Of a stretch of 64,000 nucleotides of DNA, positions 3,910-40,545 are shown in pieces. Positions within the stretch are counted from its first letter, which is position 1; every line of letters starts with the position of its first letter. The stretch covers positions 7,828-71,827 of the forward strand of contig URCH01000005.1 in assembly GCA_900546275.1 (NCBI GenBank). Reading direction: 5' to 3'. The position numbers were made by a program, and so were the translations under genes. A model generated the notes under the pieces. That model did not search any database and was not told the origin of the DNA. It worked only from the letters and a program-made list of their open reading frames with translations. This DNA is from an uncultured Mycoplasmatota bacterium. Lineage in GTDB: Bacteria > Bacillota_I > Bacilli_A > RF39 > UBA660.

Positions 3910-3914
3910 TTATG

Positions 3915-6624: not shown

Positions 6625-6628
6625 TAGA

Positions 6629-8449: not shown

Positions 8450-8467
8450 AAAGAGGTTTTATAAAAA

Positions 8468-8938: not shown

Positions 8939-8962
8939 ACTACTAATTGAAGTAGTTTTTTT
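8937..8962 (+). terminator. Intrinsic terminator
   Basis: AAACTACT (8937-8944) pairs with AGTAGTTT (8951-8958), followed by a T-run to 8962. Confidence 0.65.
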
Positions 8963-9037
8963 GATATATATGTTATAATTATAATGATAAAGTTATTTAA
9001 AATTTAATTATTAAATAGAAATATAGAGGAGTACAAA

Positions 9038-9925: not shown

Positions 9926-9937
9926 GAGGTCGTATTT

Positions 9938-11812: not shown

Positions 11813-11821
11813 AGGTTAAAC

Positions 11822-13914: not shown

Positions 13915-13926
13915 TAGGAGAAAAAT

Positions 13927-14940: not shown

Positions 14941-15139
14941 AATAAACTTAAAAAGTTTGTTTTTTCTTTACACTTTTTTATAATTAAAATATTTATAAAA
15001 ATCAATAAAGTATTGATTTTAAAATAAAAAAGGTAATACTTTTAAAAAATAATGAATAATTTAGCATTTAAAACTTTACATTAGTCTTATTTACTAAAAT
15101 TATATATTATAAATAAAAAATATTATTAATTAAAAAGTC

Positions 15140-16355: not shown

Positions 16356-16437
16356 CAAATTTAAAATAACATTTATAAAAAATCTATCTAATAATTTTTA
16401 TTTGTGATATAATTAAATTCAAGGTAGGTAATGTTGT

Positions 16438-16884
16438 ATGAAAGAAAAAAATAATTCAAAATTAATTAAAAATTGTATAGTTTCAGGTGTAATAATAATA
16501 GTTATTGTTTTATCAATATTTTTAATATTTTCACTTAAGAAAAAAACAATAAGTAATTCAGAACAATTAACCAAATCACTTAAAGATATGGGAGTTCAAT
16601 TCTATGAGGATTTTTATTACAATCAAATAGGGAAAAACGAAACTGAGAGAAAAGCATTTTTAGAAAAATACAAAGATATTGGAATAAAAGTTAGTTTAGA
16701 TAATATACTTCGTTCTAAAAAAACAGAAACTACGGATGAAAATAACACTTTTATTAATAAAGAAACTAACGAAGAATGTAATAAAAATACTTCAATGGTA
16801 GTAATTTATCCAAAAGAACCATATGGAAAAACAGATTATAGCATTGATGCAATATTAGATTGTGGTTTTGAAAGTGAAAAATAG
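16438..16884 (+). CDS. Small membrane-anchored hypothetical protein
   Basis: 148 aa with one N-terminal TM helix (IVSGVIIIVIVLSIFLIFSL). Has its own terminator. Confidence 0.5.
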   Translation: MKEKNNSKLIKNCIVSGVIIIVIVLSIFLIFSLKKKTISNSEQLTKSLKDMGVQFYEDFYYNQIGKNETERKAFLEKYKDIGIKVSLDNILRSKKTETTDENNTFINKETNEECNKNTSMVVIYPKEPYGKTDYSIDAILDCGFESEK

Positions 16885-16909
16885 GTACTTGAAAAAGTAC
16901 TTTTTTTTT
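16885..16909 (+). terminator. Intrinsic terminator
   Basis: GTACTT (16885-16890) pairs with AAGTAC (16895-16900), GAAA loop, T9 run 16901-16909. Confidence 0.6.
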
Positions 16910-16927
16910 AAATATATCTATTGCATG

Positions 16928-16956
16928 ATGACAAAATTTAAAAAATATTATATAAT
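16928..16956 (+). promoter_or_regulatory. Sigma-A-type promoter of the giant surface-protein gene
   Basis: ATGACA (16928-16933), 17-nt spacer, TATAAT (16951-16956). The predicted start site is only about 9 nt before the first ATG. Confidence 0.5.
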
Positions 16957-16971
16957 TATTAAGATAGTAAG

Positions 16972-19900
16972 ATGGACGATGATAGTATGGTAGAAACTAA
17001 AAAAATTGAAAAAGAATTTACTATAAAGTTTATATTAGCGTTTGCGTTAATATTCTTTTTTGCATGTCCATTTATGATAACTAAAGCAAATGCTGCAGGT
17101 CCAACATATGAATTTGAATATAGTGGAGATTATCAAACATTTGTTGTACCACGAAGCGGTATATATAAATTAGAAACATGGGGAGCACAAGGAGGCGACC
17201 GTGGAGCTAATAATGGTGGAAAAGGTGGATATACAACTGGTGAAGTATATTTAAAACGTGGAGATATTTTATATATATATGTTGGTGGTTCAGGAAAAAC
17301 ACATGGAGGATATAATGGTGGAGGAGCTCAACCTACTTTAAAAACGTATGGTGGAGGAGCTACAGACATTAGATTTGTAAATGGTGCTTGGGATAATGAA
17401 GCTAGTTTAAAATCAAGATTAATAGTGGCCGGTGGAGGTGGAACCGTAGGTGCTAGCAATAAAGTTGGTGGTGCTGGTGGATTAACTGGTGGTTCTTCTT
17501 CTGGATATGGAACTGGTGGTGTAGGTGCAACATTGTCTGGCGCTGGTTCTCTTCGTGCGGGATTTGGTTTTGGTGGAAGTGGAACTTCAGGTTCAGGAGG
17601 CCATGCTGGTGCCGGTGGAGGTGGCTGGTATGGTGGAGGTGGATCTACCCCAGATGGCTCTGCTGATGATGACCGTGGAGGTGGAGGTGGTTCAAGTTTT
17701 ACTTGGAACACTCAAACTAAACAATATGTTCCAACTGGTTATTCAGTTTCTACTGATTATTATATGACAAATGTTAATTATTCAACCGGTTCAAGAGCAG
17801 GAGATGGATATGCCAAAATAACTGCCCTAAAACTTGATGGAATAACTAATTTTGAAATTAATCGTGGAAATGTACCAATTGATTATAAATACAATTTATA
17901 TGAATACAATTTAACAATAGATAATGATGTTGAAAATATTAGATTTAACATTTTAACAGAAGATGGTTATACTTTAACACAATCAAATAGAAGTACTGAT
18001 ATGACTAATAATTTATCAGTAACAAACACAATAACTTTAACCGATGAAGAAACAGGAATTGTTCAAGTTTATACTGTAAATGTAAAAAAACAGAATGCGT
18101 ATTTAGAAAACCTTGGAGTAGTATCTTATGGATATTCTTATACTGGAAATTATGAAAAATTTTATGTTCCAGCAACTGGTATTTATACCTTAGAAACATG
18201 GGGAGCGCAAGGTGGACATCGTGGGAATAATAACGGTGGAAAAGGTGGATACGCTAAAGCAGAAATGTATCTAGTAAAAGGTGAAGTTCTTTACGTATAC
18301 GTTGGTGGAAGTGGATCTACCCTTTCACAAGATGGAAAAACAAAAGGATGGAATGGTGGTGGACACACTAACGGATACTATTCAGCTGGTGGTGTATGGA
18401 GTGAAACTACTAACATGTATGGTGGAGGAGCTACAGACATCCGTTATGGTGGAAATTCACTTTATAATAGAGTATTAGTGGCCGGTGGAGGCGGTTCAGT
18501 AGGCGCTAGCAATAAAGCTGGTGCTGCTGCAGGGTTAAGTGCTGATAGCGGCTGTGGTACTGGAGGTACTGCTGGTGCAATTAATGCTGCAGGTTCTTAT
18601 AGAGCTGGCTTTGGGTACGGTGGAAATGGTACTTTTGGAAACGGTGGCTATGGCGGCGCCGGTGGAGGCGGCTGGTATGGCGGTGGAGGAGCTAATCCAG
18701 ATGGCTCTGCTGATGATGATAAAGGTGGAGGTGGAGGATCCAACTTTGCCTTTACTAGTCAAAATAGTAAATATGTACCAGAAGGTTATCTAGTAACAGA
18801 TAAAAATTATTTAACTAATGCTACTTTATCAAATGGTAATGTAAGTTTTAAAAATCCAAGTGGAGTAACAGAAACAGGACATACAGGAAATGGGTATGTT
18901 AGAATCAGCCCAAAATTAATCAATGGTGTAAGTGATATAACTATTAATGATGGTGAAATTCCAATAGATTTTGATTATACAATATATGAATATCATATTT
19001 CAGTTTTAGATAGTGTAAAAGCAATAAATGTTAATTTACAACTAAATGAAGGTTATTCAATGGTTGAAAGTTACACTGGAAGTTATGATATTACAAATGA
19101 AAAACAATATGTTTATAGTGTAGATGTAAAAAATGATATTACAGGTTTGACAGTTAATTATAAAATAACATTTCATAAACAAAGTGATTATTTAATGAGT
19201 GGAACAACAGGTTCATATGGTTATACATACAATGGACTTCCACAAAAATTTGTTGCCCCAGCAGCAGGTATTTATACATTGGAAGCATGGGGAGCACAAG
19301 GTGGAGACCGTGGAAATAATAACGGTGGAAAAGGTGGATATTCTACAGGACAAATATTTTTAAATAAAGGACAAATACTTTATGTATATGTTGGAAGCTC
19401 TGGTAATGCTGGAGGATGGAATGGCGGCGGTAAAGCTGGGTACGGAACTATCTATGGTGGAGGAGCATCTGATATACGTATAGGTGGTCAATCTTTATAT
19501 AACCGTTTAATAGTCGCTGGTGGCGGTGGTTCAGTAGGATCAACAAATAATGCTGGTGGAGTCGGTGGAGGCTCAACTGGTGGTGCTGGAGCTGGAAGCT
19601 ATGGATCAGGAGCTGAAGGCGCATCGCAAATAAAAGCTGGAAATAATTACGGAACATTTGGACAAGGTGGCTCAGGTATAGCCGCAAATGGAGGCTACGG
19701 CGGCGGAGGCGGCGGTGGCTGGTACGGCGGTGGAGGAGCTGGTGTAGATGGCTCTGGTGATGATGATCGTGCCGGTGGTGGTGGTTCAGGATTTGTTTGG
19801 ACTAGTGCTAGTTCTACAACCGTTCCAAGTGAATACTTATTGTCATCTAGCCAATATTTAATGGAAGCTTCAACAAAAGCCGGAAATACTTCATTCCCAA

Positions 19901-22900
19901 ATACAACAGGTGGAACAGAAACAGGACATGAAGGAAATGGATTTGTAAAAATATCTTTCTCGTTATCATATGATTTTGATATTATCGTTAGTGACAATGT
20001 TACTTTGGATAAAGAATTTGACTATGATGTAAAAGATTACACTGGTACATTAGATAGTAACGATTCATCTTTAGTAACTTTTAAAGTTACAGATAGTGAT
20101 TCAATTTTAAGTGTAGATGGTGATGGAACTAGAGAAATTCATGTTGGTGATAACACATTTAATATAACAATTACATATATAAATGGTGCTGTTGAAGTAT
20201 TTAGTTATCATATCTATCGTGAAGCAAATGATATAGATTATTTAAATAATATATATTTTGATGAGCATTCTATATCTGAATTTTCAGATGTTTCATTTGA
20301 TAAGAACACGTATACATATAATGTTAATTTACCGTACTATATGGACGAATATGATTTAACTGTTGACAAAGGTTCATCAGATCAAATCATCACAAATATT
20401 GGACATATATCTAATAAAAGTAATTCTTACAGTATACCTATTTCAGTAACAAATGAAACAGGTACAAGTACAAAAATTTATACATTAAATATTAACTTAC
20501 CTCATTCTAGTAAAATAAAAAAACTAACATTTAATAGTAGTGGTGGTTCAGTAATAGATTTTCCAATAACTGATGATAAAACAGAATTTGATATTGAATT
20601 TGAAAGTCATATAGCTTCAATTGATACACTAGTTGAACTTTACGATGGAGAAGCAAAAGCTACTGTATCTGGTGATGGATATATTCAATCAGATAAATTC
20701 GATATCATTATTACAGTAACAGAACCACATGTTGAACCTACAACTTATACTTTACATGCAAAAAGAGTTACTGTAAGTGGATATGAAAAAAATCTAGGAT
20801 ATAATGGTAACGTTCAAACAATAATAATTCCATATGACCATGAATATTTATTAGAAGTATGGGGAGCTCAAGGAGGAGCTGGAGGTGGCCGTGGAGGTTA
20901 CTCATATGGAACAATATATTTAGAAAAAGGAACAATTCTTTATGCTTACGCTGGTGGTAGTGGAGCAAATGGAGGATTTAATGGTGGTGGTTCTTCACGT
21001 GTAGGAAAAGGTGGAGGAGCATCCGATATACGTATTGGAACTGATTCATTATATAGTCGTGTAATTGTAGCCGGAGGTGGTGGCGGTCATGGTTCAGATG
21101 GCTGTGCTGCTGGAGCTGTTGGAGGAGGACTTAATGGTGGAGGTTCAAGTGCAAGTGGATCTTGTGGAACTCAAGCTGGTGGAGGTACTCAAACAGACGG
21201 TGGAACATACGGAAAATATAATAAAGCAATTGGTACAATAGGAAAATTTGGTATAGGCGCAAATGCACCAACTAGTGGCGGAAACTACTTTGGAGGTGGA
21301 GGCGGCGGCGGCTGGTACGGCGGTGGCTCTGGAGCAACAAGTGGTTGGTCAAATGGTGGTGGAGGTGGATCAGGATTTATATATACTTCTGAAACTGCCT
21401 ATGTAATTGAAAACGCAAAAGAATGGTTACTTGATAGCAAGTATTATTTAACAAATGCTAATACAGTTAGTGGTTCAAATTATTTTAAATCACCAACTGG
21501 TACAATGGAAACAGGACATTCTGGAAATGGTTATGTTAAAGTAACTATTCCATATCAACAAAGTGAAAATAATTTCTTAGACGGAATTATATCTAATAAA
21601 GGTGTTATGACACCAGAATGGGATTATAATGTCGACACATATTATTTAAAATTAAATTCAGATGATGTTGAAATTAATATTGAAGGTGTTCCTGCTGATA
21701 GTAAAGCAAGTGTTGTAGGAAATGGAAATTATACAATAGAAAGTGGAACAACAGAAATTCCTTTAGTAGTAACAGCAGAAAATGGATATACAAAGACATA
21801 TAAAGTTATTGTTACAAGAGATGCAGATACAAATGCGACTCCAAAAAATATTTTCATAAACGGATTAATAGAAGAGTATTGTGCAACTTTAGATGGTGCA
21901 TGTGATTATAAATTTGATCCTGAAATTAATACATATAATGTTAAAGTTCCATATACAATTAGAGAAATTGTTATGGTTGTTGATAAAGCTCACTATTTTC
22001 AAACTGTAAATGGTGATGGTTTGTATGAATTGTCTGGTGGAAATAATAAATTCCAAGTAGATGTTACAAGTGAAGATAAAAATCATACAACATCATGGAA
22101 TTATAATATTTATCGTGATATGGATGGAAATGCGGATTTAAAAGTTTTAAGAATGATTTCACCAGAATATGAAATAAACTATTCATATAATATAACTGAT
22201 TATTATGTAACTGTTCCAAATGAAACAGAGCGTGTAGAGTTAGAAGCAATTGCAGATGATGAAAATGCAACTGTAAAAATAGATTCATCTGATTTACAGT
22301 ATGGTGAAAATACAATTACAATAACTGTAACTGCTGCAAATGGAAATCAAAAACAATATAATGTTCATGTTAACAGATTAGAAAGTAATAACGCTTTCTT
22401 AAAAGAACTTACAATAAATGACATTACAGATTCAGAAAATATTAAAGAACTAGAAATTACTCCAACATTTAATAAGATGAACTTGAAATATAACATGGTA
22501 GTTGAAAATTCAGTTTCAAAAATATCATTGTCAGGTGTTTTGGAAGATTCATTACTTGCAACAGTAACTGGATTAGACGAATATAACTTAAATGTAGGTG
22601 CTAATACAATTAATGTAGTTGTAACCGCACAAGATGGAAGTACATTAACTTATACTTTTATAATAAATAGAAAAGCAAATGCAAATACATTATTATCTAG
22701 TTTAACTGTAGATGAAGCAAATTTAACAGAACCTTTTGAATCAACAAAATTTGTATATTACATGTATATAACAGGTGAAACTGAAAAATTAACAATCAAT
22801 GCAGTTCCAGAAGCTGATACATCAAAATATACAATAATTGGAAATTATAATAATTTACAAGCTGGAAAAAATGAAATTATAATCCGTGTAACAGCAGAAG

Positions 22901-25900
22901 ATGGTTCAACTTGTGATTATAAAATTATAGTAAATCGTGCAGGATATACAGATAATTATTTACAATCATTATTAGTAACAAATGGAAGCGAAATTTATAA
23001 ATTGACTCCAAATTTCGATCCATTATACGACAATTACACATTAACTATTCCAAATGAAGTTACAAATGTATTACTAACAGCAACAGCGGATGGAAACAAA
23101 CGTGCTAAAATAGGAAATAGTAGTGTATATGTTAAAAATATAAATTTATTGACAGAAAATCCTTCTAACAATGTTATAACTGTAACCGCAGAGGATGGTA
23201 CTGTTAGAACGTATACTCTTACTATAACTAGAGAAAAATCTGATGATAATTCTCTTAGTACACTAATTGTAAAAGACAATAACCTAATACCAAGTTTTAA
23301 TTCTGATACACTAGATTATAGTTTTACAACAAACGATCGTACTCTTGATATAACTGCAATTCCAACAAACAAATATGCAAAAGTTGAAATAAGTGAAAAT
23401 GCTAAATCACTTGTAGCTGGTTTAAATGTAGTAACAATAAAAGTAACAAGTGAAACAGGAAATGAAAGAATATATACATTAAATGTAACAAGAGAATTAA
23501 GCAATGATAACACATTAAAAACATTAGAAGTAAAAAATAATACTTTAACACCAAGTTTTGATCCAGAACAATTAGAATATAATTTAGATACATTTGATAA
23601 AAAAATTGATATAACTGCAATTGCTAATAATAAATATGCAACTGTAAAAATAGAGGGAGACCTTAATTTAAAAGAAGGAATAAATGATATCAAAATTTTG
23701 GTTACTAGTGAATCTGGTGATACTAGAGAATATATAATTCATGCTAATCGTGTTTTAGATGATAATAATTATTTAGCTAGTTTAACAACAAATGTAGGAT
23801 TTAATGAAACTTTTGATAAAGAAACATTAGAATATACAAAAACTACAGAAGATAAGCAAATTTCTATAAATGCAACATTAGAAAGTAAAAATGCAGTTTA
23901 TAGCATTACTGATGTAGATGGAAATATTATTACTAGTTTTCCACAGAATCTTAAACTAGGAGAAAATATTTTCTTCATTAATGTAACTGCCCAAAATGGT
24001 AATGTTAGAACATACAAAATAACTATTACAAATAATAAAAATAGTGATTCGAAATTATCTAATTTAACAACAAGTGAAGGAATTAATGAAACTTTTTCAC
24101 CAGACAGTTATCAATATACTTTAAGTACTAAAGAACATAAGATTACTATTACACCAATTCTAAGAAGTAAATATTCTTCATATAAAATTTATGATATAAA
24201 TGGTGATGTAGTATCAAATGAGGTTGAACTTACAACTGGACAAAATATATATATGATAATAGTAGAAGCAGAAAATGGTACAACTACAACATACAATCTT
24301 GTGGTTGATAGAAGTGCTAAAGATATTGCTACTATTGATAGTTTAGGTATAGATGTAACTCCGACATTTAATAAAAATAATTTTGATTATACAATTACAA
24401 CAGATGAAACAAGTTTGAATTTAGAAAATATAGTTTTAACTGATTCATATTCAACTTATACAATTTCTGGTAATAGTAATTTTAGTAATGATAGTACATC
24501 AACAGTGACAATAAAGGTAACAAGTGAAGATTTAAAAGTTACAAATACATATACAATTGTTGTAACAAAAATAGTTTCTACTGATCCTAGATTAAGTACA
24601 TTCGAATTAAATAACTATGATTTTAATCCTGTTTTTGATAAAGATAAAACAGAATATGAAGTATTTGTTCCAAATGGTTTACAACAAGCTAGTTTAAAAT
24701 TAAAAACATTAAAAAATACTTCAAAAATCAAAAGTATTATGATAAATAATTCAGAACAAGTTGTTAGTGAAATAAATAGTTTTGAAAATAATGTTTCAAT
24801 TCCTGATGTTTCTTCTAGTCCAACTATTACAGTTATAGTAGAAGCAGAAAATGGAGATGAAAAAACTTACACTTTAACTATTAGCAGTGAAGATCTAATA
24901 AACAATTATCTATCAACTTTAAATGTAAGTTGTGGTAATTTAGAACCTGCATTTGATAGAACAATAAATGAGTATATTGTATTTACAGATAGTTCAACTA
25001 CTTCATGCAATGTTCTATCAACACCAGAAGTTTCTATATCTACAGTTGAAGGAAATGGTGATTATAATTTTGATGCAAATGCAAAATATTTACTTGTTCC
25101 TATAACTGTTACATCTAGTAGAGGAGAAAAAAGAGTTTATAATGTAAAAATCAGGAAACCATTGTCTAATGAATCAAGATTATCAAGTTTAGATTTGATT
25201 GGAAATACATTAACTCCTTTATTTGATAGTGATACGTTTGAATATTCAGTAACAGTTTCAAATAATATTAGCAAACTTAATAAAGAGTCATTTACTTATA
25301 CAACTATTGATCCAGATAGTGTAGTAACATTCCCAGAAATTAATTTAAAATCAGGAAATGTAACACAGTATGTAATAACTTCTAAATCAGAAGATGGAAC
25401 AACTGAATCAAAATATACATTAAATGTAACAAGAGAAAAATCAAGTAATACTATCATCACAGAAGTAAATATTGATACTTTAGGAAATACATATAAATGT
25501 GTTATGGATCAAACAACGAAATCATGTAATGTAACGCTTCCTAGTAATACATCAAACTTTACTTTGAATGCTACATTACCAGAAGGTGCAACTGTAAATC
25601 CTTCTAACCCTTCTAGTCATATTTTTGATGAAGAAGATAATAGCAAGACAATATCATTAGTAGTAACAGCTGAAGATGATACTGAAGATACATATACTGT
25701 AAATGTAAATAGAGCTGAATCATCAAATAATGATTTATTGGATCTAAAAGTTAATTATGTTTCATTACCAAATTTTTCATCACAAGTTTTAGAATATGAT
25801 AAAACTGTGTTAGGTACAATGAGTCAAGTAATGATTTCAGCTACACTTGCAGATAAGAAAGCTACTATTGTAACTGATTTAAGTCAACCATTTAATTTGG

Positions 25901-28900
25901 AATATGGTATTAATAAGATAGATGTTGTAGTTAGAGCACAAAATAAAGAAGAAAAAACTTATACTATAAATATTACTCGTAGTGATAGTGCAGATGCTAC
26001 ATTAAGTTCTTTAAGTGTAAAGAATTATCCATTTGAAGAAACTTATGATCCAGAAGAAACTGACTATACAATTCGTGTTCCAAGAACAAAGAAGACATTA
26101 ACAAGAGAAGAAATTTTATATACTTTATCTGATAAAAATGCAATTATTTCGCTAGATAACAAGTTAGATATTGACTTTACAAAACCAAACAATATTTACA
26201 CAATAACAGTAACAGCTGGTGATGGTGTAGTTCAAAAATACTACCACATATCAGTATTACCTGAATTATCTACAAATAATAATGTTGAAAGTGTAGTTGT
26301 AAATCAAACTGAGCTTAAACATAAAGATAATGTATTTACATATGATATCTTTGATACAGATGCAAGTGCAATATTAGAGAGTATTACTTTGAGTAATGAA
26401 TATGCTACCCATAATGTAATATTGCCACAAAAAATTTCTTATGATAATCCATATAAATTTATTGTAACAGCAGAAAATGGGGATGTTGCTTTATACACAG
26501 TTCAATTAGCTCGTACAAAAACACGTGAATTAAAATTATCAAATATAGAAGTTAAGTTTAATGAAGATGATGATTGTACAGATATTTGTACACTAGATAA
26601 AGTATTTAATGAAGATGCAACAGATTATGAAATATATATTCCAAATGAATTAACTAGTTTAGAAAATATTATTGTTACACCAAAAAATGATCTTCAAAAC
26701 TATGAAATAATAGGAAATGAAGATTTAAAAGTTGGTGAAAATAAAATAATAATTAGGGTTAAAAATTCATTGGATGAAATATTTGATTATACTTTAACAG
26801 TATATAGAGAAGCAAATTCTGATCCTAATATAGCAGGAATTTCATTTAAAACACCAGAATATGATATAACTGAATTTGATGAAAATTTATATGAATACAA
26901 TGTTGAATTCAATGCTATAGAAAGTGGTAAATATGAATTAGAATTTGAGAAGAAAAATGAAAATCAAAATATCACAATAAAAGGTGCAAAAGTATTATAC
27001 TTTGGAAGAAACGATATAATTGTTCATACAGAATCAGAAAGTTGTTCAAGTACAGTTAAAACAAGAAAAGGATGTAATGAAAGAGATTATATTATACATG
27101 CATATAGAAATGAGGCTTATAGTAATTTACTTGCAAGCTTAACAGTTTCATCAGGGGATACAGCAGATTTATTACAAGTATTTAATAAATATAAATTTGA
27201 CTATGTCTTAGAAGTAGATAGTGAAATCAGTAAAATCAAAATTGAGGGAACAGCATTTGATACAACTCATACTACAGTAACTGGAAATGGAGAGTTTGAC
27301 CTTGAACAAGGGTTGAATACATTTAATATAATTGTTACTCCAGAAACTGGTGATTCTGCAACTTATACTTTAAGTATTATAAGAAAACAAAGCGATAATG
27401 TTAATCTTGCAAATTTAAAAGTTAAAGGTTATGAATTAACTCCAAGTTTCTCAAAAAATGTTTTAGATTATTATATTGAAATTGATAGCACGGTTAATTC
27501 ATTAGATATTATTTATGAAAAAGAATCTCCAGAACAAACTGTATATATATCAGGAAATTCTAACTTCGTAACAGGTGAAAATATAGTCAAAGTAGTAGTA
27601 TTATCAGGTGATAAAACGCGTGGTAAAACATATAATATTCATGCTACTAGAAAACCAAGTGAAAATAATTTATTAAATGGAATAACTGTAAAATCTACAA
27701 AAAATGGAGTAGAAACAATTCATGCTTTAACACCATCATTTGATAGTTTAGTAAATAATTATACAGTTAATGTTTCATCAACAATAAGTGAAGTTACTAT
27801 ATCAACAATAAAAGGACAAGTAATGCAAAATATTACAGGTAACGGAAGTTATATATTAGAGTATGGTGAAAATATAATACCTATAATTGTTACAAGTGAA
27901 AATGGAAGTATTAATACTTATCAAGTAACTATTAATCGAGAGTTCGATTTCGAATTATTAGATTTAACTGTTAGTCATGATGGTACGATTTATCCAATCA
28001 CTCCAAATTATAGTAATGATGTATTTGAATATAATGTTTCTGTTGGAAATGAAGTAAAAGATGTGTTAATTAACGCAACTTTAAAAGAAACATTAAATGA
28101 TATTTCTGGGTTAGGAGAATATGAACTTAATACTGGAAACAATGATATAACTCTTACGGTAAGTTATTTAGATAAAGGAAGTATTAATTATGTAATACAT
28201 ATAAATAGAGAAAAATCTTCTGATAATTTACTTAAAAACTTACAAGTTGCTGAAGGAGTAATAACGCCAATATTTGATCCAGACACTTTAGAATATAGTG
28301 TAAATATTCCTTTTGAATATGAAAGTGCAACAATAATTTATGAAACAAATTCTAAGGAAGCAACTGTAGAAATAAAAAATAATACTAACCTTGAGGTTGA
28401 AGTAACAAAGGATATAGAAGTAATAGTTACAGCAGAAAATGGGGATAAGAAAACTTATATTATTCATGCAACAAGAATGCAAAAGCCTGTTGCAAGTAAT
28501 CGTTTAACAGATATGTATATAGATGAGGGAACATTAGATCCAATATTTAATATAGGAATGATGAATTATACAACTGAAGTAGGAAAAGATGTAAAAAGAA
28601 TAAACCTTCATTTGAAGGCTGAAGAACCTTTATATACCAAAGTAGAAGTTTACAAGTTAGGTTCTACATCAACAACAACAGTTGATATGACTGTGAGTGA
28701 TCCTAAAATAATGTTAAACGTAGATTCTGGTAAAAATCCATTTGTTATTAGAGTAACAAATTATGAAGGAAATATTAGAAATTATCAATTAGATGTTTAT
28801 AAAGCTGGTCCAAATGAAGCAAGAATTAAGTCATTATCATTTGATTATGGAACACTTTCACCAACATTTGATAAAAATAAAAATGCATATACAATGGAAG

Positions 28901-31413
28901 TTGATAGTAAAGTAACATCTATTAATGAGTCTGTTGTTATGATGGATGAAAAAGCAACATATACAATTACAGGTAATAAAAACTTAAAAATAGGTGAAAA
29001 TACTGTAACAATAACTACAGTTGCTCAAGATGGAAAAACAAGTTTAGAGTATACAATAATTGTTACAAAAAAAGCTTCCAGCAATGCTTATTTAAGTGAT
29101 ATTGTAACATTCCCAGAAAAAGATTTTGAATTTGATAAAGATAAATATAATTATATTTATCACGTAGAAAACAATGTTAATACAATACAAATTATTGGTG
29201 TTAGAGAAGATACAACAGCCAAAATTACAGGAAATGGAATTTATAAACTTACCGACAATGATTTAACTGTTAAACTTACTGTAACAGCAGAAGATGGGAC
29301 AACAAAAGTTTATACTGTTGTTGTAACTAAGAAAAAAGATAGTAACGCTAACTTACAAAGTTTAACAATAAATAATGGTGAGTTGGTACCATCATTTGAT
29401 AAAGATACTACTTCATATACAGTAGAAGTTGAAAATTATGTTGATTCTATTACATTAAATGGAATAGCAGAGTCAGAAAAGGCTACTGTTAGTGGAAATC
29501 AAACTTATGATTTAGTTGAAGGTACAAATAAATTATCAATTACTGTAACAGCAGAAGATGGAACAATAAAAACATATTTTGTAAATGTTACTAGAAAAGA
29601 AAATGAATTACAACAAACTTTATTAGAAGACTTAACTGTTTTAGAAGGTGAATTAAATCCAAAATTCAGTCCTAATACATTTAATTATGTTGTAAACATA
29701 CCAAATGAATATGAAAGTGCAACTATTAATTATGTTAAACATAATAAAGATGCCATAGTTGATATATATGGAAACGATAATTTAGAAGTAGGACACAATA
29801 TTATTACAGTAAAAGTTTCTTATAATGGTGAAGGCACTACATATACTATAGACGCAATTAGACAAGAAGCAAGTAATACATATTTGAGTGTATTATCTGT
29901 AAGCGAAAATGAAATAGTTCCAGAATTTGATAAAACAATTCAAAATTATACATTAGATGTAGGTAATGAAGTTTCTTTTGTTAATTTAAAAGCGACACCT
30001 GAACTTTCTACCAGCACGGTATATATAAAATCTGATTCTTCTTATGTTGAATATAAAGACATAACACAAATTAATTTAAAACCAGGAATAAATGACATAT
30101 ATATTAAAGTTATTAGTTCAACAAAATCAGAAAGAGTATATAAACTTACAATTACACGTGCAAATAGTGATGAAAATAAATTGTTGACTTTAAATACAAG
30201 TACTGGTGAAATAAGTCCTAAGTTTGATCCTGAAGTAAATAGTTATACATTAAATGTACCAATTGGTACAAAATATGTAACTTTATCAGGAACAGTATCC
30301 GATGGGGCTACAGTAACTGGCTTAGAAACATATCAACTATCAGTAGGAAGTGTTACAAAGTTTATTAACGTTACATCACAAAGTGGATTAGTTAACACTT
30401 ATGAGGTTACTATTGTAAGACAAGCAAGTAATGATGCTACAATTACTGATATAAAACCATCAGTAAGTACACTTAATCCTGAATTTTCTTCTGAAATTAG
30501 TGATTATAAAATAGAAGTTGAAGGGGATGTTAAGAATATTTCATTTGATGTTACGACAGCATCAACAGATGCAGTTGTAATAGGAGATGGAGTTACTGAA
30601 TTATTCCCAGGTAAAAATATAATTACTATAACTGTTATAGCAGAAGATGGAATTACTCAACAAAGTGTTAATATAGAAGTTTATAAAAAAACAGATATTA
30701 ATTCATTTGAAACCGATTTAGAAATCAATGTACCAATAGGAAATGATTATCAAATTGATATAAAATATAATCCTGAAAATACTGATTATAAAGAAATGAC
30801 TTATGTACCACAAGATACATCTATATTAAGTGTTTCAAAAGATGGTTTAATTACACCAAATAAAGTAGGTGATACAACTATTAAAGTTACTTCAACTAGA
30901 AATTCCACACTTACTAAAACTATAACTGTTCATGTAATTAATCCAATGATAGAAACTGATACTTATATTATAAATCGTGATACAGAAGGTTATGAATATA
31001 TTACAGGTATGGAACCACATACAACAGTGGATGAATTTTTAAATAATTTAAAGAATGAACGAAGTAATCTTCAAGTTTATGATAGTACAGAAACAGATGT
31101 AATTTCTGATGATGTTAATATTAAAACAAGATATGTAGTTAAATTATCTATTAATGGAACAGTATATGATCAACTTGTATTAGTAATTAAAGGTGATATA
31201 AGTGGTGATGGATATATTACTGTTGCAGATATAAATAAATCTAAAAATCAAATATCAGCTAAAATAGAGTTTGATGAAATAGATAAAGCTGCTGCAGATA
31301 TTAATATGGATACTTATAATACTGTTGCGGATATAAATAAAATGAAAAACTATATATCAGGAAAAATTAGTTCGTTGAATACAGAATTATATGATTTCTA
31401 TAATAAAAAATAA
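16972..31413 (+). CDS. Giant (4813 aa) secreted dockerin-bearing protein: 4 ALK/LTK-type glycine-rich modules, about 38 cadherin-like beta-sandwich repeats, a Big_2-like Ig domain and a C-terminal dockerin
   Basis: Uninterrupted 14.4-kb ORF. Sec signal peptide (..FMITKANA/AG). Repeats of about 85 aa end in ..Y.(I/L/V).(V/I).R, with the recurring VTAEDG/VTAENG strand. Ig-like segment ..SILSVSKDGLITPNKVGDTTIKVTS... The start may be the second ATG at 16987. Confidence 0.9.
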   Translation: MDDDSMVETKKIEKEFTIKFILAFALIFFFACPFMITKANAAGPTYEFEYSGDYQTFVVPRSGIYKLETWGAQGGDRGANNGGKGGYTTGEVYLKRGDILYIYVGGSGKTHGGYNGGGAQPTLKTYGGGATDIRFVNGAWDNEASLKSRLIVAGGGGTVGASNKVGGAGGLTGGSSSGYGTGGVGATLSGAGSLRAGFGFGGSGTSGSGGHAGAGGGGWYGGGGSTPDGSADDDRGGGGGSSFTWNTQTKQYVPTGYSVSTDYYMTNVNYSTGSRAGDGYAKITALKLDGITNFEINRGNVPIDYKYNLYEYNLTIDNDVENIRFNILTEDGYTLTQSNRSTDMTNNLSVTNTITLTDEETGIVQVYTVNVKKQNAYLENLGVVSYGYSYTGNYEKFYVPATGIYTLETWGAQGGHRGNNNGGKGGYAKAEMYLVKGEVLYVYVGGSGSTLSQDGKTKGWNGGGHTNGYYSAGGVWSETTNMYGGGATDIRYGGNSLYNRVLVAGGGGSVGASNKAGAAAGLSADSGCGTGGTAGAINAAGSYRAGFGYGGNGTFGNGGYGGAGGGGWYGGGGANPDGSADDDKGGGGGSNFAFTSQNSKYVPEGYLVTDKNYLTNATLSNGNVSFKNPSGVTETGHTGNGYVRISPKLINGVSDITINDGEIPIDFDYTIYEYHISVLDSVKAINVNLQLNEGYSMVESYTGSYDITNEKQYVYSVDVKNDITGLTVNYKITFHKQSDYLMSGTTGSYGYTYNGLPQKFVAPAAGIYTLEAWGAQGGDRGNNNGGKGGYSTGQIFLNKGQILYVYVGSSGNAGGWNGGGKAGYGTIYGGGASDIRIGGQSLYNRLIVAGGGGSVGSTNNAGGVGGGSTGGAGAGSYGSGAEGASQIKAGNNYGTFGQGGSGIAANGGYGGGGGGGWYGGGGAGVDGSGDDDRAGGGGSGFVWTSASSTTVPSEYLLSSSQYLMEASTKAGNTSFPNTTGGTETGHEGNGFVKISFSLSYDFDIIVSDNVTLDKEFDYDVKDYTGTLDSNDSSLVTFKVTDSDSILSVDGDGTREIHVGDNTFNITITYINGAVEVFSYHIYREANDIDYLNNIYFDEHSISEFSDVSFDKNTYTYNVNLPYYMDEYDLTVDKGSSDQIITNIGHISNKSNSYSIPISVTNETGTSTKIYTLNINLPHSSKIKKLTFNSSGGSVIDFPITDDKTEFDIEFESHIASIDTLVELYDGEAKATVSGDGYIQSDKFDIIITVTEPHVEPTTYTLHAKRVTVSGYEKNLGYNGNVQTIIIPYDHEYLLEVWGAQGGAGGGRGGYSYGTIYLEKGTILYAYAGGSGANGGFNGGGSSRVGKGGGASDIRIGTDSLYSRVIVAGGGGGHGSDGCAAGAVGGGLNGGGSSASGSCGTQAGGGTQTDGGTYGKYNKAIGTIGKFGIGANAPTSGGNYFGGGGGGGWYGGGSGATSGWSNGGGGGSGFIYTSETAYVIENAKEWLLDSKYYLTNANTVSGSNYFKSPTGTMETGHSGNGYVKVTIPYQQSENNFLDGIISNKGVMTPEWDYNVDTYYLKLNSDDVEINIEGVPADSKASVVGNGNYTIESGTTEIPLVVTAENGYTKTYKVIVTRDADTNATPKNIFINGLIEEYCATLDGACDYKFDPEINTYNVKVPYTIREIVMVVDKAHYFQTVNGDGLYELSGGNNKFQVDVTSEDKNHTTSWNYNIYRDMDGNADLKVLRMISPEYEINYSYNITDYYVTVPNETERVELEAIADDENATVKIDSSDLQYGENTITITVTAANGNQKQYNVHVNRLESNNAFLKELTINDITDSENIKELEITPTFNKMNLKYNMVVENSVSKISLSGVLEDSLLATVTGLDEYNLNVGANTINVVVTAQDGSTLTYTFIINRKANANTLLSSLTVDEANLTEPFESTKFVYYMYITGETEKLTINAVPEADTSKYTIIGNYNNLQAGKNEIIIRVTAEDGSTCDYKIIVNRAGYTDNYLQSLLVTNGSEIYKLTPNFDPLYDNYTLTIPNEVTNVLLTATADGNKRAKIGNSSVYVKNINLLTENPSNNVITVTAEDGTVRTYTLTITREKSDDNSLSTLIVKDNNLIPSFNSDTLDYSFTTNDRTLDITAIPTNKYAKVEISENAKSLVAGLNVVTIKVTSETGNERIYTLNVTRELSNDNTLKTLEVKNNTLTPSFDPEQLEYNLDTFDKKIDITAIANNKYATVKIEGDLNLKEGINDIKILVTSESGDTREYIIHANRVLDDNNYLASLTTNVGFNETFDKETLEYTKTTEDKQISINATLESKNAVYSITDVDGNIITSFPQNLKLGENIFFINVTAQNGNVRTYKITITNNKNSDSKLSNLTTSEGINETFSPDSYQYTLSTKEHKITITPILRSKYSSYKIYDINGDVVSNEVELTTGQNIYMIIVEAENGTTTTYNLVVDRSAKDIATIDSLGIDVTPTFNKNNFDYTITTDETSLNLENIVLTDSYSTYTISGNSNFSNDSTSTVTIKVTSEDLKVTNTYTIVVTKIVSTDPRLSTFELNNYDFNPVFDKDKTEYEVFVPNGLQQASLKLKTLKNTSKIKSIMINNSEQVVSEINSFENNVSIPDVSSSPTITVIVEAENGDEKTYTLTISSEDLINNYLSTLNVSCGNLEPAFDRTINEYIVFTDSSTTSCNVLSTPEVSISTVEGNGDYNFDANAKYLLVPITVTSSRGEKRVYNVKIRKPLSNESRLSSLDLIGNTLTPLFDSDTFEYSVTVSNNISKLNKESFTYTTIDPDSVVTFPEINLKSGNVTQYVITSKSEDGTTESKYTLNVTREKSSNTIITEVNIDTLGNTYKCVMDQTTKSCNVTLPSNTSNFTLNATLPEGATVNPSNPSSHIFDEEDNSKTISLVVTAEDDTEDTYTVNVNRAESSNNDLLDLKVNYVSLPNFSSQVLEYDKTVLGTMSQVMISATLADKKATIVTDLSQPFNLEYGINKIDVVVRAQNKEEKTYTINITRSDSADATLSSLSVKNYPFEETYDPEETDYTIRVPRTKKTLTREEILYTLSDKNAIISLDNKLDIDFTKPNNIYTITVTAGDGVVQKYYHISVLPELSTNNNVESVVVNQTELKHKDNVFTYDIFDTDASAILESITLSNEYATHNVILPQKISYDNPYKFIVTAENGDVALYTVQLARTKTRELKLSNIEVKFNEDDDCTDICTLDKVFNEDATDYEIYIPNELTSLENIIVTPKNDLQNYEIIGNEDLKVGENKIIIRVKNSLDEIFDYTLTVYREANSDPNIAGISFKTPEYDITEFDENLYEYNVEFNAIESGKYELEFEKKNENQNITIKGAKVLYFGRNDIIVHTESESCSSTVKTRKGCNERDYIIHAYRNEAYSNLLASLTVSSGDTADLLQVFNKYKFDYVLEVDSEISKIKIEGTAFDTTHTTVTGNGEFDLEQGLNTFNIIVTPETGDSATYTLSIIRKQSDNVNLANLKVKGYELTPSFSKNVLDYYIEIDSTVNSLDIIYEKESPEQTVYISGNSNFVTGENIVKVVVLSGDKTRGKTYNIHATRKPSENNLLNGITVKSTKNGVETIHALTPSFDSLVNNYTVNVSSTISEVTISTIKGQVMQNITGNGSYILEYGENIIPIIVTSENGSINTYQVTINREFDFELLDLTVSHDGTIYPITPNYSNDVFEYNVSVGNEVKDVLINATLKETLNDISGLGEYELNTGNNDITLTVSYLDKGSINYVIHINREKSSDNLLKNLQVAEGVITPIFDPDTLEYSVNIPFEYESATIIYETNSKEATVEIKNNTNLEVEVTKDIEVIVTAENGDKKTYIIHATRMQKPVASNRLTDMYIDEGTLDPIFNIGMMNYTTEVGKDVKRINLHLKAEEPLYTKVEVYKLGSTSTTTVDMTVSDPKIMLNVDSGKNPFVIRVTNYEGNIRNYQLDVYKAGPNEARIKSLSFDYGTLSPTFDKNKNAYTMEVDSKVTSINESVVMMDEKATYTITGNKNLKIGENTVTITTVAQDGKTSLEYTIIVTKKASSNAYLSDIVTFPEKDFEFDKDKYNYIYHVENNVNTIQIIGVREDTTAKITGNGIYKLTDNDLTVKLTVTAEDGTTKVYTVVVTKKKDSNANLQSLTINNGELVPSFDKDTTSYTVEVENYVDSITLNGIAESEKATVSGNQTYDLVEGTNKLSITVTAEDGTIKTYFVNVTRKENELQQTLLEDLTVLEGELNPKFSPNTFNYVVNIPNEYESATINYVKHNKDAIVDIYGNDNLEVGHNIITVKVSYNGEGTTYTIDAIRQEASNTYLSVLSVSENEIVPEFDKTIQNYTLDVGNEVSFVNLKATPELSTSTVYIKSDSSYVEYKDITQINLKPGINDIYIKVISSTKSERVYKLTITRANSDENKLLTLNTSTGEISPKFDPEVNSYTLNVPIGTKYVTLSGTVSDGATVTGLETYQLSVGSVTKFINVTSQSGLVNTYEVTIVRQASNDATITDIKPSVSTLNPEFSSEISDYKIEVEGDVKNISFDVTTASTDAVVIGDGVTELFPGKNIITITVIAEDGITQQSVNIEVYKKTDINSFETDLEINVPIGNDYQIDIKYNPENTDYKEMTYVPQDTSILSVSKDGLITPNKVGDTTIKVTSTRNSTLTKTITVHVINPMIETDTYIINRDTEGYEYITGMEPHTTVDEFLNNLKNERSNLQVYDSTETDVISDDVNIKTRYVVKLSINGTVYDQLVLVIKGDISGDGYITVADINKSKNQISAKIEFDEIDKAAADINMDTYNTVADINKMKNYISGKISSLNTELYDFYNKK
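17101..21553 (+). repeat. Four paralogous glycine-rich modules (about 245-265 aa each) resembling the ALK/LTK glycine-rich domain family
   Basis: Approximate modules: 17101-17832, 18118-18918, 19211-19963, 20774-21553. Each has F/YxVPxxGIYxLExWGAQGG (TGG at 17179, 18199, 19289, 20861), GGKGGY, LY(I/V)YVGG(S)G, YGGGA(T/S)DIR, R(L/V)(I/L)VAGGGG, GGGGWYGGGG, and a closing GH.GNG(Y/F)V(K/R)(I/V). Confidence 0.8.
31189..31368 (+). other. Dockerin module of the giant protein
   Basis: Duplicated calcium-loop/helix segments DISGDGYITVADINKSKNQIS and DINMDTYNTVADINKMKNYIS separated by a short linker. Confidence 0.8.
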
Positions 31414-31414
31414 A

Positions 31415-31451
31415 AGGAATTTTAATTTTAAATAATTAAAATTCTTTTTTT
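31415..31451 (+). terminator. Intrinsic terminator after the giant gene
   Basis: AGGAATTTTAATT (31415-31427) pairs with AATTAAAATTCTT (~31434-31446), followed by a T-run to 31451. Confidence 0.6.
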
Positions 31452-31656: not shown

Positions 31657-34600
31657 ATGAAAAATGATAAAAAGTATTTTAAACATATCTGTTCATTGTT
31701 TATTTTATTTATTACAATTTGTTTTACAAATGCAAAGGCAGATACAGCTCATAACTTAAATATTAAAATGATTAAGTGTGATGAATCAAAATATAATTCA
31801 TTCGCAACACAAAATGATTATAAAAGTTGTTACAATGATTATGTATCAGGAAAACTTTCATCATATGTAATTAATACAGGTGATGAAGTGGATACTGGAA
31901 CTGTAATTTTAACAATCTTAAATTATACACCAGGGAGTCCTCAAGTAATAACAAGTATTAATACTCGTTTAAATATTGATACCGATGTTTTAACACCAAT
32001 AGTAAAAACAAATGGAAGTCTTTTATATTACCAAACTACTTATTGGCCTGAAGATTCAAATTACTCTACAAGTTTTAACTATAATTCGACTTCAGGAATA
32101 ATAGGTGGTTCATTTGTTGATAGTGAAGATGTTCCTTTGACAGAAGAAACAGAACTATTATATTTTTTCTTAAAAATAAATGATTCTGCTACAGGAACAA
32201 TTCCTATTGAATTTTCAAAAAAACCAGGAGATAATGATATGACTGATTTTGATGGAAATCAATATGAGTTTACAACTACTGATGCGAATGTAAAAATACC
32301 AGGAGAATCATTATCACATGATGCTTCACTTGGAACATTAACAGTAACAAATGGATCTACAACTTATCCACTTTCTCCTGAGTTTGTATCAGGAAGTGTA
32401 GATAATAAATCATATACTGCTGTAGTTCCAAATGATATAGAATATATTAACTTAAATGCAACAGCAAATCATAGCAAGGCTTCAATATTAAGTGGCATTT
32501 TAGGAAAAAATAACATTAATGTTGGAGAAAATAGTTTTACAATTACAGTAACAAGTGAGTTTGGTAACATTGAAGTTTATACATTAAACGTATATAGATT
32601 ATCAAATGATGCAACACTTTCTTCAATTAATTTAACTAATGGTATAAGTTTTGGAAATTTAATTAGTGGAACTTATAGTTATTCAACAACAATACCTTAT
32701 GCCATAACTTCTACATCAGTTTCTGCAACTCCTACTCATGCCAATGCTTATGTTGATAGTGGACTTGGAACATGGAATCTATCTAATTCTGGAACATTAT
32801 CAAATAATAAAGTTTTAGTTGTAAAAGCAGAAAACTGTCTAAGTAAATACTCAAGTGTACCAGGTAATAGTTGTACATCTCAAAATTATAATTTAACAAT
32901 TAATCGACAAGCAGCATCAGATAATAGTTATTTAAAAAGTTTAACTGTTGATGGTGTAAGCGTTAGCGATTTTAACAAAACCAAACAAGAATATGATTTA
33001 GGAACAGTAGCAAATAATAAATCATCAATGTTATTAAATGGTTTAGTTGACGATACAGGCAAAGCAAGTGTTTCAGGTCTTGGAACAGTAAATTTAAATA
33101 TTGGAGAAAACAATTTCACAATTACAGTAACAGCAGAAGATAAATCAACAAGAGAATATAAAATTAAAGTATATAGATTATCAAATGAAAATAAATTATC
33201 TAGTTTAACTATAACATCTTCTCCTCAAGCTACAATGTCTCCAGCATTTACTTCAACATTTAATGGAACTTATACATATAATTATGATGCAACTGTTACA
33301 GATATTACAGTAAGTGCTACTGTACTTGATACAGGAAAAGCAAGTGTATCAATTTATGATTTAGAAAAAGGTGAGTCATCTTCTTCAGCAACACTTAATA
33401 CACAATCAAAAACTTTTGGAATAGAAACTAAAAATGTTTATGTAGTAGTAACAGCAGAGGATGGAACAGTAAATACTTATACAATAGATTTAACTAGAAC
33501 AAAATCATCAGATAACAGTTTAAAATCTTTAATAATAGATAATGGAACATTAACACCTTCATTTAATTCAACAACAAGAACATATACAGCAGAAGTAGAA
33601 GGTAATGTAACTTCAATTAATGTTAATGCAATACCTAATTCATTATATGGAAAAATTAAGAGTATAACTGGTAATACTAATTTGAATTTTGGTAATAATC
33701 AAATAGAAATCATAGTAGAAGCAGAAAATGGAAATACAGCATCTTATATTATTAATGTAACAAGAAAACAATATGATATTTCAACACTAGATGATATAAA
33801 AATAGATGGTGTAAGTATAGAAAACTTTAATAAAGATACTAAAGAATATGATTTAAAAACAGTAAATTTTGAAAAAGATAGTATTAACATTGAAACAACA
33901 AAAAGTAATAGTTATGCAACAGTATCAGGCGACGGATTAGTGTCACTTAAAACAGGTGATAATAAAATAGTCATTACAGTAACTGCACAAAATGGTATAG
34001 ATAAATCAGAATATGTATTAAATTTATATAGAGAAAAAAATAATGATACTTCAATATCAAATTTAAAAGTTAAAGGCATAGAAGCAAAAAATACAGATGT
34101 TGGTATTTATGAAGTAACAGTACCAAACGATGTTACTATCCTTACTCCAAGCGATGTAATCTTTGATTATCCAAGTGATGCAACAATAGTAAAAAGTCAA
34201 ACATTAACTCTATTAACTACTGAAGTTAATGACTATCGCTTTAAAGTTATTGCAGAAGATAGTACAGAACAAGAATATTCAATAAAAGTAACTAGAACAG
34301 CTTCAAATGATTCATCTTTAAATAAAGTTACTTTAATTATAGGAAACGATGACAGCAGATATTGCTTAATGGATAGTGATAATACTTGCCGTATTGAAGT
34401 ACCTGTAGATACATTACAATTTACTTTAGAAACAGATATAGCAAGTACAGCATCTGTTGTACCATCAGATGATACTGTTCACTCAATGCCAGCAAGTGAA
34501 TCATCAAAAAGTATTACTTTAACTGTAACGGCAGAAGACGGAACAACTACTGTTTATACAGTTAATGTTGAAAGACAAAAATCATCAAATGCAAATTTAT

Positions 34601-40540: not shown

Positions 40541-40545
40541 GGAAT

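Follow-up and report, generated by a model that had tools for sequence, protein, structure and literature searches.

A predicted dockerin-tethered giant fibre of an uncultured Mycoplasmatota bacterium carries four tandem glycine-rich domains of the ALK/LTK family

We analysed a stretch of 64,000 nucleotides (hereafter the window, in whose coordinates all positions are given) from an uncultured Mycoplasmatota bacterium (GenBank assembly GCA_900546275.1, contig URCH01000005.1, positions 7,828–71,827 of the forward strand), in which a giant open reading frame, ORF1, encodes a protein with a signal peptide, four glycine-rich domains near its N-terminus (here called heads), a long stalk of cadherin-like domains and a C-terminal dockerin. 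The heads are solid members of the Pfam family PF12810, which is named after the glycine-rich domain of the receptor kinases ALK and LTK, and are predicted to adopt the ALK-type fold; downstream of ORF1 lie genes for a second dockerin-bearing fibre and two membrane-anchored cohesin proteins. With moderate confidence, we read the ORF1 product as a secreted cell-surface fibre that is tethered through its dockerin to a membrane cohesin and displays the glycine-rich heads at its distal end as ligand-binding adhesin modules.

An earlier note on this DNA, made from the letters alone, had described four modules of about 250 aa with an ordered series of motifs at 17101–21553, and our analysis bears this out. 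Regular-expression searches returned each of seven motif classes four times and in identical order in the ORF1 heads (WGAQGG; GG(K/R)GGY; LY.Y.G.SG; GGGA(T/S)DIR; R(L/V)(I/L)VAGGGG; GGGGWYGGG with GGGGS.F; and GH.GNGY.K), with the exception that head 1 ends in RAGDGYAKI and lacks the motif histidine, and profile searches placed the domain envelopes at 17095–21558, with head lengths of 247–274 aa (Table 1). Heads 2–4 are 47–59% identical to head 1. The PF12810 model (ALK_LTK_GRD, ALK/LTK glycine-rich domain, formerly 'glycine rich protein') has 243 positions and a gathering threshold of 24.5 bits; every head spans it from positions 6–9 to positions 241–243, scoring 117–128 bits (E = 1e-33 to 1e-37), and the whole ORF1 N-terminus matches in four stretches with E = 2.6e-134. 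NCBIfam gave no match to the first 1543 aa of ORF1.

Since a glycine-rich sequence may match another through composition alone, as the earlier note had recognised, we built a profile hidden Markov model (HMM) from database homologues only, leaving out all sequences of the window. The real heads scored 205–286 bits with this model, while 1000 composition-preserving shuffles reached at most -30 bits, which shows that the similarity is not a compositional glycine bias. Glycine accounts for 297 of the 1046 head codons, chiefly as GGA and GGT, and the abundance of these codons explains, as had been proposed, both the local rise in GC content (41–45% in the heads vs 23–27% in spacers and stalk) and the proline content of 23–35% in three antisense open frames. 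Two motifs, PDGSxDDDRGGGGGS and ETGHxGxGY(A/V)(R/K)I, hardly vary among 77 homologues from bacteria and phages, and the same holds for D90, R92 and R101.

We then modelled head 3 with AlphaFold 2. A prediction on an alignment of the four modules only had a predicted local distance difference test score (pLDDT) of 51 and was discarded, whereas a template-free rerun with the 77-sequence alignment reached a pLDDT of 91.8 and a predicted TM-score of 0.92. In this model, longer strands occur at residues 2–105 and 220–253, and the glycine-rich middle contains only scattered strands or bridges of 1–3 residues. Foldseek searches of the PDB with the model ranked ALK, LTK or the C. elegans receptor SCD-2 at each of positions 1–21 (E = 5.5e-8 to 2e-5, probability 1.0), followed after a 100-fold gap in E-value by a mycobacteriophage Bxb1 tail-tip chain at rank 22 (9D93_Qa, E = 3.6e-3) and by later matches at E > 0.4, which we regard as noise. 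The comparison with the ALK/LTK ectodomains that the earlier note had called for thus comes out in favour of the family, with TM-scores of 0.39–0.49: the predicted model has a TNF-like beta-sandwich made of N- and C-terminal strands, into which the glycine-rich part is inserted. The glycine-rich part is mostly unassigned by DSSP ('-') with isolated bridges, a pattern that is compatible with a polyglycine-II lattice and not diagnostic of one.

Sequence methods proved weak for the PF12810 family. When the PDB sequences were searched, the four-module profile found a sole match, SCD-2 (7LIR, E = 0.041), a single-module phmmer search found none, and the 77-sequence profile returned noise only. A human ALK fragment comprising residues 816–1024, whose identity was verified against PDB chains (470 bits), scores 25.6 bits on PF12810, a value obtained with a partial ALK domain, while the microbial domains score 118–166 bits. 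Human ALK is therefore a peripheral member of an essentially microbial family, described by an essentially microbial Pfam model, and the claim that the modules are of ALK/LTK type is largely supported: family membership from end to end and the structural ranking speak for it, but human ALK itself is connected with the modules indirectly.

The resemblance to ALK and LTK could in principle be convergent, glycine-rich repeats having arisen independently on a beta-sandwich so that the microbial family would be no true homologue of the metazoan domain. The human fragment barely passes the PF12810 threshold, comparison of the microbial profiles with it by hhalign was not significant, the TM-scores lie below 0.5, and even SCD-2 fails to find human ALK in a phmmer search. 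However, the order of motifs is collinear over the whole domain (WGAQGG/CGAGGG, GGGA..., ..VAGGGG/..AAGGGG, GGGG.Y.GG and a C-terminal GH.G), SCD-2 is the sole match among PDB sequences and local hhalign against it gives P = 7e-5, and the 21 top structural matches all belong to one family, set off by the gap in E-value mentioned above. We therefore judge convergence to be very unlikely indeed.

Sharing a domain with ALK does not make the ORF1 product an ALK-family receptor. The known structures of this group (ALK, LTK and SCD-2; PDB 7NX1, 7NX3, 7NX4, 7LRZ, 7LS0, 7N00, 7MZY and 7LIR) have in common with the ORF1 heads the Pfam family, the predicted fold, the collinear order of glycine-rich motifs and the character of an extracellular recognition domain. 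In contrast to them, ORF1 presents four tandem copies on a structural fibre of 4813 aa and has no ALKAL-type ligand; a Pfam scan behind the heads found no EGF-like module, transmembrane helix or kinase, and cadherin-like, Big_2 and dockerin domains instead.

The domain order of ORF1 runs from the signal peptide through four heads, separated by one, one and three cadherin-like domains, to 32 further cadherin-like domains, a Big_2 domain and the dockerin. The stalk passes the gathering threshold of PF12733 (Cadherin-like beta sandwich, 24.2 bits). The spacers between the heads, which had been called cadherin-like before, score below this threshold (19.1–22.7 bits), spacer 3 giving a single sub-threshold match; an HMM of the stalk repeat recovers four of the five spacer domains at 34–44 bits and the fifth at 10.3 bits, in support of that description. 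At the C-terminus, the dockerin that the earlier note had placed opposite the N-terminal heads passes the PF00404 cut-off of 22.9 bits when scanned alone (28.7 bits), and its duplicated segments of Ca-binding type, DISGDGYITVAD and DINMDTYNTVAD, are visible in the sequence. A Pfam scan found no enzyme domain in the fibre. The same gene is called on human-gut metagenome contigs, where a metagenome gene caller prefers an alternative start at 16987 that yields 4808 aa; an exact look-up of the 4813-aa product gave no record, the public gene call beginning five codons later.

To this architecture the neighbouring genes add a second fibre and two membrane-anchored cohesins. ORF2 carries a signal peptide, an N-terminal region of ~190 aa in place of the glycine-rich heads, about 20 cadherin-like domains and a dockerin; its N-terminal region is a second type of head on the same stalk-and-dockerin chassis. 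We considered whether the ORF2 head might itself be a cohesin, which would stack the fibres, and found no support for this (no Pfam match; hhalign probability 0.2%). ORF3 and ORF4 each encode a single cohesin, four cadherin-like domains and a transmembrane helix, and the signal peptides of ORF2–ORF4 are of an analogous ...AKA type. The two cohesins are 35% identical to each other and the dockerins of ORF1 and ORF2 38%; with two distinct dockerins and two distinct cohesins, two fibre–anchor pairs would fit. ORF2, ORF3 and ORF4 overlap or lie no more than 10 nucleotides apart, and probably form one operon.

Cohesin–dockerin assemblies are known from cellulosomes, from the amylosome of Ruminococcus bromii and from non-cellulosomal cohesin and dockerin proteins. 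The cluster described here resembles them in having a type I dockerin on the cargo, a cohesin on the anchoring protein and the genes for both in one cluster. It differs in that the cargo is a giant non-enzymatic fibre and in that the anchors bear a single cohesin and a C-terminal transmembrane helix rather than SLH domains or a sortase signal. Neither anchor (38375–42225) has SLH domains or an LPXTG motif; such a helix holds both of them, and the cytoplasmic tail of anchor 1 is charged. Cohesin anchors held by transmembrane helices are unusual for scaffoldins and may point to a thin-walled or wall-less, Mollicutes-like host.

The architecture of ORF1 recurs in public data. Glycine-rich heads, a cadherin-like stalk and a dockerin occur together in at least ten loci of low-GC (28–38%) Bacilli-type metagenome-assembled genomes, labelled Bacilli bacterium, Clostridium sp. 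28_12 or uncultured Mycoplasma sp. (loci L011, L012, L013, L016, L024, L026, L029 and others), in which 2–8 heads alternate with cadherin-like domains and are followed by a long cadherin-like stalk and a dockerin; for L016 this was confirmed with Pfam. Heads 3 and 4 are 67–73% identical to the position-matched heads elsewhere (70–73% for head 4 in L026 and L024) vs 43–55% to their own sisters in ORF1, and orthologous N-terminal fragments are 75–96% identical to head 1 and 41–48% to the other heads. Because position-matched heads from different species are closer to each other than sister heads are, the four heads are old paralogues that have been maintained separately.

Beyond these loci, the domain is carried by several other kinds of protein. 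In Prevotellaceae, genes in tandem arrays encode a fimbrillin-like Mfa_like_1 domain combined with a single head; in Nomurabacteria, one protein joins 12 TIG domains to three heads; giant proteins of Flavobacteriales and Bacteroidales have 7–9 heads, and a Roseburia protein has four. The domain is also found on giants of the Patescibacteria (Nomurabacteria and Saccharibacteria). When 1.84 billion cluster representatives (clusters at 50% identity) were searched exhaustively with a profile, 14,005 clusters matched at E <= 1e-3, that is, at least 14,000, and 1,268 at E <= 1e-30; many members of the family are 4000–7800 aa long, with up to 9–10 copies of the domain. We found no paper on bacterial PF12810 proteins; the sole paper found to cite the accession, on a fungus, treats it as a domain of unknown function. 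ORF1 adds to a known and functionally unstudied microbial family.

As for the species itself, the anchor 1 cohesin protein occurs unchanged on at least 17 metagenome contigs, mostly from the human gut, its cluster at 90% identity has 374 members, and variants of the SecA encoded in the window at 99–100% identity occur in 746 indexed blocks of the metagenome collection. Hundreds of human-gut metagenome assemblies contain the species, and this recurrence indicates that it is common in human guts. In a scan of one genome per species, the closest relative was at most 62% identical.

The sequences closest to the heads, at 45–57% identity, are proteins of 300–400 aa without a signal peptide, one of which (397 aa) is named 'Glycine rich protein [Caudoviricetes sp.]'. 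In the viral structure database BFVD, 101 viral proteins matched the head 3 model at E <= 1e-3, the best with a TM-score of 0.92 and 50% identity; 'tail fiber protein' and, for cyanophages, 'virion structural proteins' are among the names of these proteins. Many phage and giant-virus proteins with PF12810 are auto-named 'receptor protein-tyrosine kinase' in BFVD, an annotation artefact that stems from the name of the Pfam family. On a 42.6-kb phage contig of 58% GC, the gene for the glycine-rich domain lies in the tail-tip region, three genes past the tape-measure gene, before a gene for an Ig-domain protein and well upstream of the endolysin gene. A relative is encoded on 192 viral contigs, with the domain N-terminal and in 1–4 copies. 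The PHROG families 1589, 5811 and 7388, which contain the PF12810 domain, are annotated as 'unknown function'.

The phage proteins (Siphoviridae sp. ct5co22 A0A8S5QTR7 and the 397-aa Caudoviricetes cluster) are thus the closest relatives of the heads and share their motif set, including PDGSxDDDRGGGGGS and ETGHxGxGY. They differ from ORF1 in being short (median open frame 576 aa), in lacking a signal peptide and in being encoded among tail-module genes. A comparable tip has been described in the tail fibre gp24 of the myocyanophage Pam3, where a TNF-like and glycine-rich tip resembles SCD-2 (7LIR) and has been proposed to recognise the host receptor (PMC9608196). That fibre is a homotrimer formed through an N-terminal helical bundle and needs the chaperone gp25 (PMC9608196), whereas the ORF1 heads lie in one polypeptide. 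Neither N-terminal helical trimerisation or baseplate docking nor a chaperone of the Pam3 type was found for ORF1, which starts with a signal peptide followed by head 1, and the Pam3 gp24 entry was absent from the sequence searches and from the 50 listed Foldseek PDB matches of head 3. Bundles of polyproline-II/polyglycine-II helices also occur at the tail tips of other phages, namely in gp38 of S16 and gp33/gp29 of Bxb1 (PMC13243192). These proteins of Salmonella phage S16 (6F45) and mycobacteriophage Bxb1 (9D93) belong to different families with different cores, gp38 having no TNF-like sandwich, and the match of the Bxb1 chain 9D93_Qa to the head 3 model is weak.

In the mechanism that we propose, the Sec signal peptide would direct the fibre to the cell surface, where the ORF1 dockerin may plug into one of the downstream membrane-anchored cohesins. 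With about 38 beta-sandwich domains of ~4 nm each, we estimate that the fibre would project some 100–150 nm from the membrane, and the heads would be distal because the C-terminal dockerin would be held at the membrane. A glycine-rich lattice, rigid and set on a beta-sandwich core, might then expose loops able to recognise a ligand on a surface, as the domain does with a cytokine in ALK/LTK and as phage tail-fibre tips do with a host receptor; candidate ligands are host mucus or glycans, food particles and the envelope of another microbe. Because they are old and individually conserved paralogues, the heads are probably non-redundant in specificity or multivalent. Giant adhesins with repeat stalks and distal binding modules are known, among them SiiE, LapA, MpIBP and Ebh. 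The ORF1 protein is like these in its long Ig-like or cadherin-like extender with putative ligand-binding modules at the far end; it differs in its predicted non-covalent anchoring through cohesin and dockerin and in its heads, which belong to PF12810, a family not known from those adhesins.

That the heads bind host surfaces or particles, as the earlier note had suggested, is what we infer from the architectural context and from relatives. Among the relatives, the function assigned (ALK/LTK) or proposed (Pam3 gp24) is recognition; four kinds of surface appendage that are unrelated to one another bear the domain at their ends, namely fibres with cadherin-like domains and a dockerin, fimbrillin-like proteins, TIG stalks and phage tail modules; ORF2, the sister fibre, keeps the stalk and the dockerin and swaps the head; and the four heads are old paralogues kept separately. 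Several observations weigh against this interpretation. The low TM-scores to ALK/LTK come with root-mean-square deviations of 8–10 Å, the hhalign comparison with human ALK was not significant, and that with SCD-2 was marginal (probability 62%). In phage proteins, the glycine-rich domain is N-terminal, which is the end usually attached to the virion. Close homologues conserve the domain along nearly its full length, including the invariant D90, R92 and R101, unlike receptor-binding tips in which a conserved scaffold carries hypervariable loops, and such conservation could fit a metal or catalytic site equally well.

A narrower version of the binding-head reading, which we think has a real but minor chance of being correct, is that the heads bind bacterial envelope polymers such as cell-wall glycopolymers or capsule, so that the fibre would serve co-aggregation or an epibiotic or dependent lifestyle and not host attachment. 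The closest relatives of the heads are phage tail-module proteins, and phage tails bind bacterial surfaces; the domain is present on giant proteins of Patescibacteria, which live attached to other bacteria; and the combination of glycine-rich domain, cadherin-like stalk and dockerin is concentrated in low-GC Bacilli-type and 'Mycoplasma'-labelled genomes. Against this, gut taxa that are free-living or saccharolytic, such as Prevotella/Segatella, Bacteroidales, Roseburia and Flavobacteriales, also carry the domain in abundance, and the phage contig with the best match has a GC content of 58% and therefore an unrelated host. The heads might also be enzymes, for example glycan- or cell-wall-degrading ones, displayed on a cellulosome-like cohesin–dockerin scaffold. 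Cohesin–dockerin systems classically display enzymes, many phage tail proteins are depolymerases, and invariant Asp, Arg, Glu and His positions as well as the acidic DDD motif are conserved from phage to bacterium. Yet the heads matched no catalytic family in Pfam or NCBIfam, their sole structural relatives are non-enzymatic binding domains and the fibre lacks any other enzyme domain, so that an enzymatic function appears very unlikely.

It would further be conceivable, if improbable, that the heads are mainly structural, serving as rigid and protease-resistant caps or spacers that make the fibre tip stiffer or shield it and have no specific ligand. Polyglycine-II bundles are indeed compact and rigid, as in sfAFP, S16 gp38 and ALK (PMC13243192), and the conservation over the whole length leaves no obvious hypervariable loops in close homologues. 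However, cheap beta-sandwich domains already supply the stalk, four old and separately conserved distal paralogues argue for a function at the tip, the ORF2 fibre replaces the heads with a different one, and recognition is the use of the domain in all characterised relatives, including that proposed for Pam3 gp24. Binding heads on a tethered fibre remain our preferred interpretation.

What makes this system interesting is the size of the microbial family compared with ALK, the clean four-gene cluster of fibres and anchors in a prevalent gut bacterium, and the ease with which it can be tested. Research has treated the glycine-rich domain of ALK and LTK as something peculiar to two human receptor kinases, while most of its family is microbial. 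Four compact modules of ~250 aa could be expressed and screened, which could provide a first function for the family and a candidate colonisation or aggregation factor, and the heads offer a point of comparison for the origin of the ALK ligand-binding fold. More speculatively, PF12810 may be primarily a microbial cell-surface recognition module with which phages, ultra-small epibiotic Patescibacteria and reduced low-GC gut Bacilli latch onto the envelopes of other cells, displayed here in fours on a new class of cohesin–dockerin fibre, and the ALK/LTK domain a highly diverged offshoot of the microbial family, possibly acquired horizontally; we regard this wider proposal as unlikely in its entirety.

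Table 1. Features of the fibre and anchor gene cluster, in window coordinates.
Feature	Position	Strand	Description
Giant fibre gene ORF1	16972..31413	+	one unbroken open reading frame, 4813 aa
Sec signal peptide hydrophobic core	17017..17094	+	aa 16–41, ends ...ITKANA|AG; read from translation
Head 1	17095..17835	+	aa 42–288; PF12810 117.6 bits, E 1.2e-33, model positions 7–243
Spacer 1	17818..18051	+	one cadherin-like beta-sandwich; stalk-repeat HMM 34.1 bits; PF12733 19.1 bits
Head 2	18115..18921	+	aa 382–650, with a 15–20 aa loop insertion; PF12810 118.3 bits, E 7e-34
Spacer 2	18901..19182	+	one cadherin-like beta-sandwich; stalk-repeat HMM 41.4 bits; PF12733 22.7 bits
Head 3 (modelled module)	19204..19968	+	aa 745–999; PF12810 127.8 bits, E 9e-37
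Conserved motifs in module 3	~19744–19788 and ~19918–19953	+	module aa 181–195 and 239–250; equivalent sites in all heads
Spacer 3	19975..20727	+	three cadherin-like beta-sandwiches; stalk-repeat HMM 38.1, 44.0 and 10.3 bits
Head 4	20737..21558	+	aa 1256–1529; PF12810 127.0 bits, E 1.6e-36
Stalk	21547..30648	+	32 tandem cadherin-like beta-sandwich domains by stalk-repeat HMM; PF12733 in 26 stretches, E 9e-199
Big_2 Ig-like domain	30730..30921	+	PF02368, 24.1 bits; converted from segment residues 3060–3123
C-terminal type I dockerin	31180..31365	+	aa 4737–4798; PF00404 28.7 bits scanned alone, 21 bits within the long protein
Second fibre ORF2	31657..38364	+	2235 aa; signal peptide, ~190 aa head, ~20 cadherin-like domains, C-terminal dockerin
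ORF2 N-terminal head	31741–32300	+	~190 aa, aa 29–215; no Pfam match
ORF2 dockerin	38164–38349	+	aa 2170–2231 of ORF2; 21.4 bits, E 3e-4, below the PF00404 cut-off
Anchor 1 (ORF3)	38375..40540	+	721 aa; signal peptide, cohesin, 4 cadherin-like domains, transmembrane helix, ~140 aa cytoplasmic tail
Anchor 1 cohesin	38453–38872	+	PF00963 31.9 bits
Anchor 1 transmembrane helix	40031–40114	+	read from sequence
Anchor 2 (ORF4)	40531..42225	+	564 aa; signal peptide, cohesin, 4 cadherin-like domains, C-terminal transmembrane helix
Anchor 2 cohesin	40627–41025	+	PF00963 35.9 bits
Anchor 2 transmembrane helix	42076–42144	+	read from sequence

The Prevotellaceae arrays were seen at 61–14403 of locus L010 (a Prevotellaceae metagenome-assembled genome) and in L018, L039 and L087 (Segatella), with up to eight consecutive genes for proteins of 350–620 aa. 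One array protein that we scanned combines Mfa_like_1 with a C-terminal glycine-rich domain, and these proteins may be a family of type V pilus tip proteins.

The window is a segment of a bacterial chromosome of ~25% GC, whose genes flanking the cluster include those for SecA, the ribosome hibernation factor HPF and a class-I tRNA synthetase (TrpRS) as well as a cluster of 12 tRNA genes. A prophage origin or a misassembly was ruled out, since the flanks (SecA, HPF, TrpRS) are chromosomal and the locus is intact in many assemblies; no phage genes were found in the neighbourhood of ORF1, which is a cellular gene. Just upstream of ORF1 there is an integrase-like open reading frame of the rve type (15159–16127, - strand). 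The genes that follow secA (6492–16971; compared in L001–L004 and L171–L178) differ between strains of the species and include an integrase, an ABC transporter, CutA1/YgjV and DUF2828, so the region from secA to the fibre cluster is strain-variable. A BspA-type leucine-rich-repeat protein with zinc ribbons and then a radical SAM/SPASM enzyme are encoded at 9938–13564.

Around ORF1 itself, a promoter-like ATGACA-17-TATAAT at 16928–16956 was not above shuffle expectation, and neither was anything found in a scan for Rho-independent terminators. By eye, a perfect hairpin rich in AT (GAATTTTAATT ... AATTAAAATTC) with T7 behind it is visible at 31414–31452, directly past the ORF1 stop; it looks like an intrinsic terminator, and was missed by the scan because the scanner requires at least three G–C pairs.

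Directly past the fibre cluster, a 334-aa protein of three 'helicase-associated' (HA) repeats is encoded at 42244–43248. The 12 tRNA genes (Val, Thr, Tyr, Gln, Lys, Leu, Ser, Met, Asp, Phe, Arg and Pro) occupy 57295–58539 and account for a second bump in GC content at 57–59 kb. Finally, a 980-aa protein encoded at 60963–63905 (- strand) comprises three lamin-tail domains, a chitobiase/Fn3-associated domain and a CotH kinase domain, and is probably surface-exposed.

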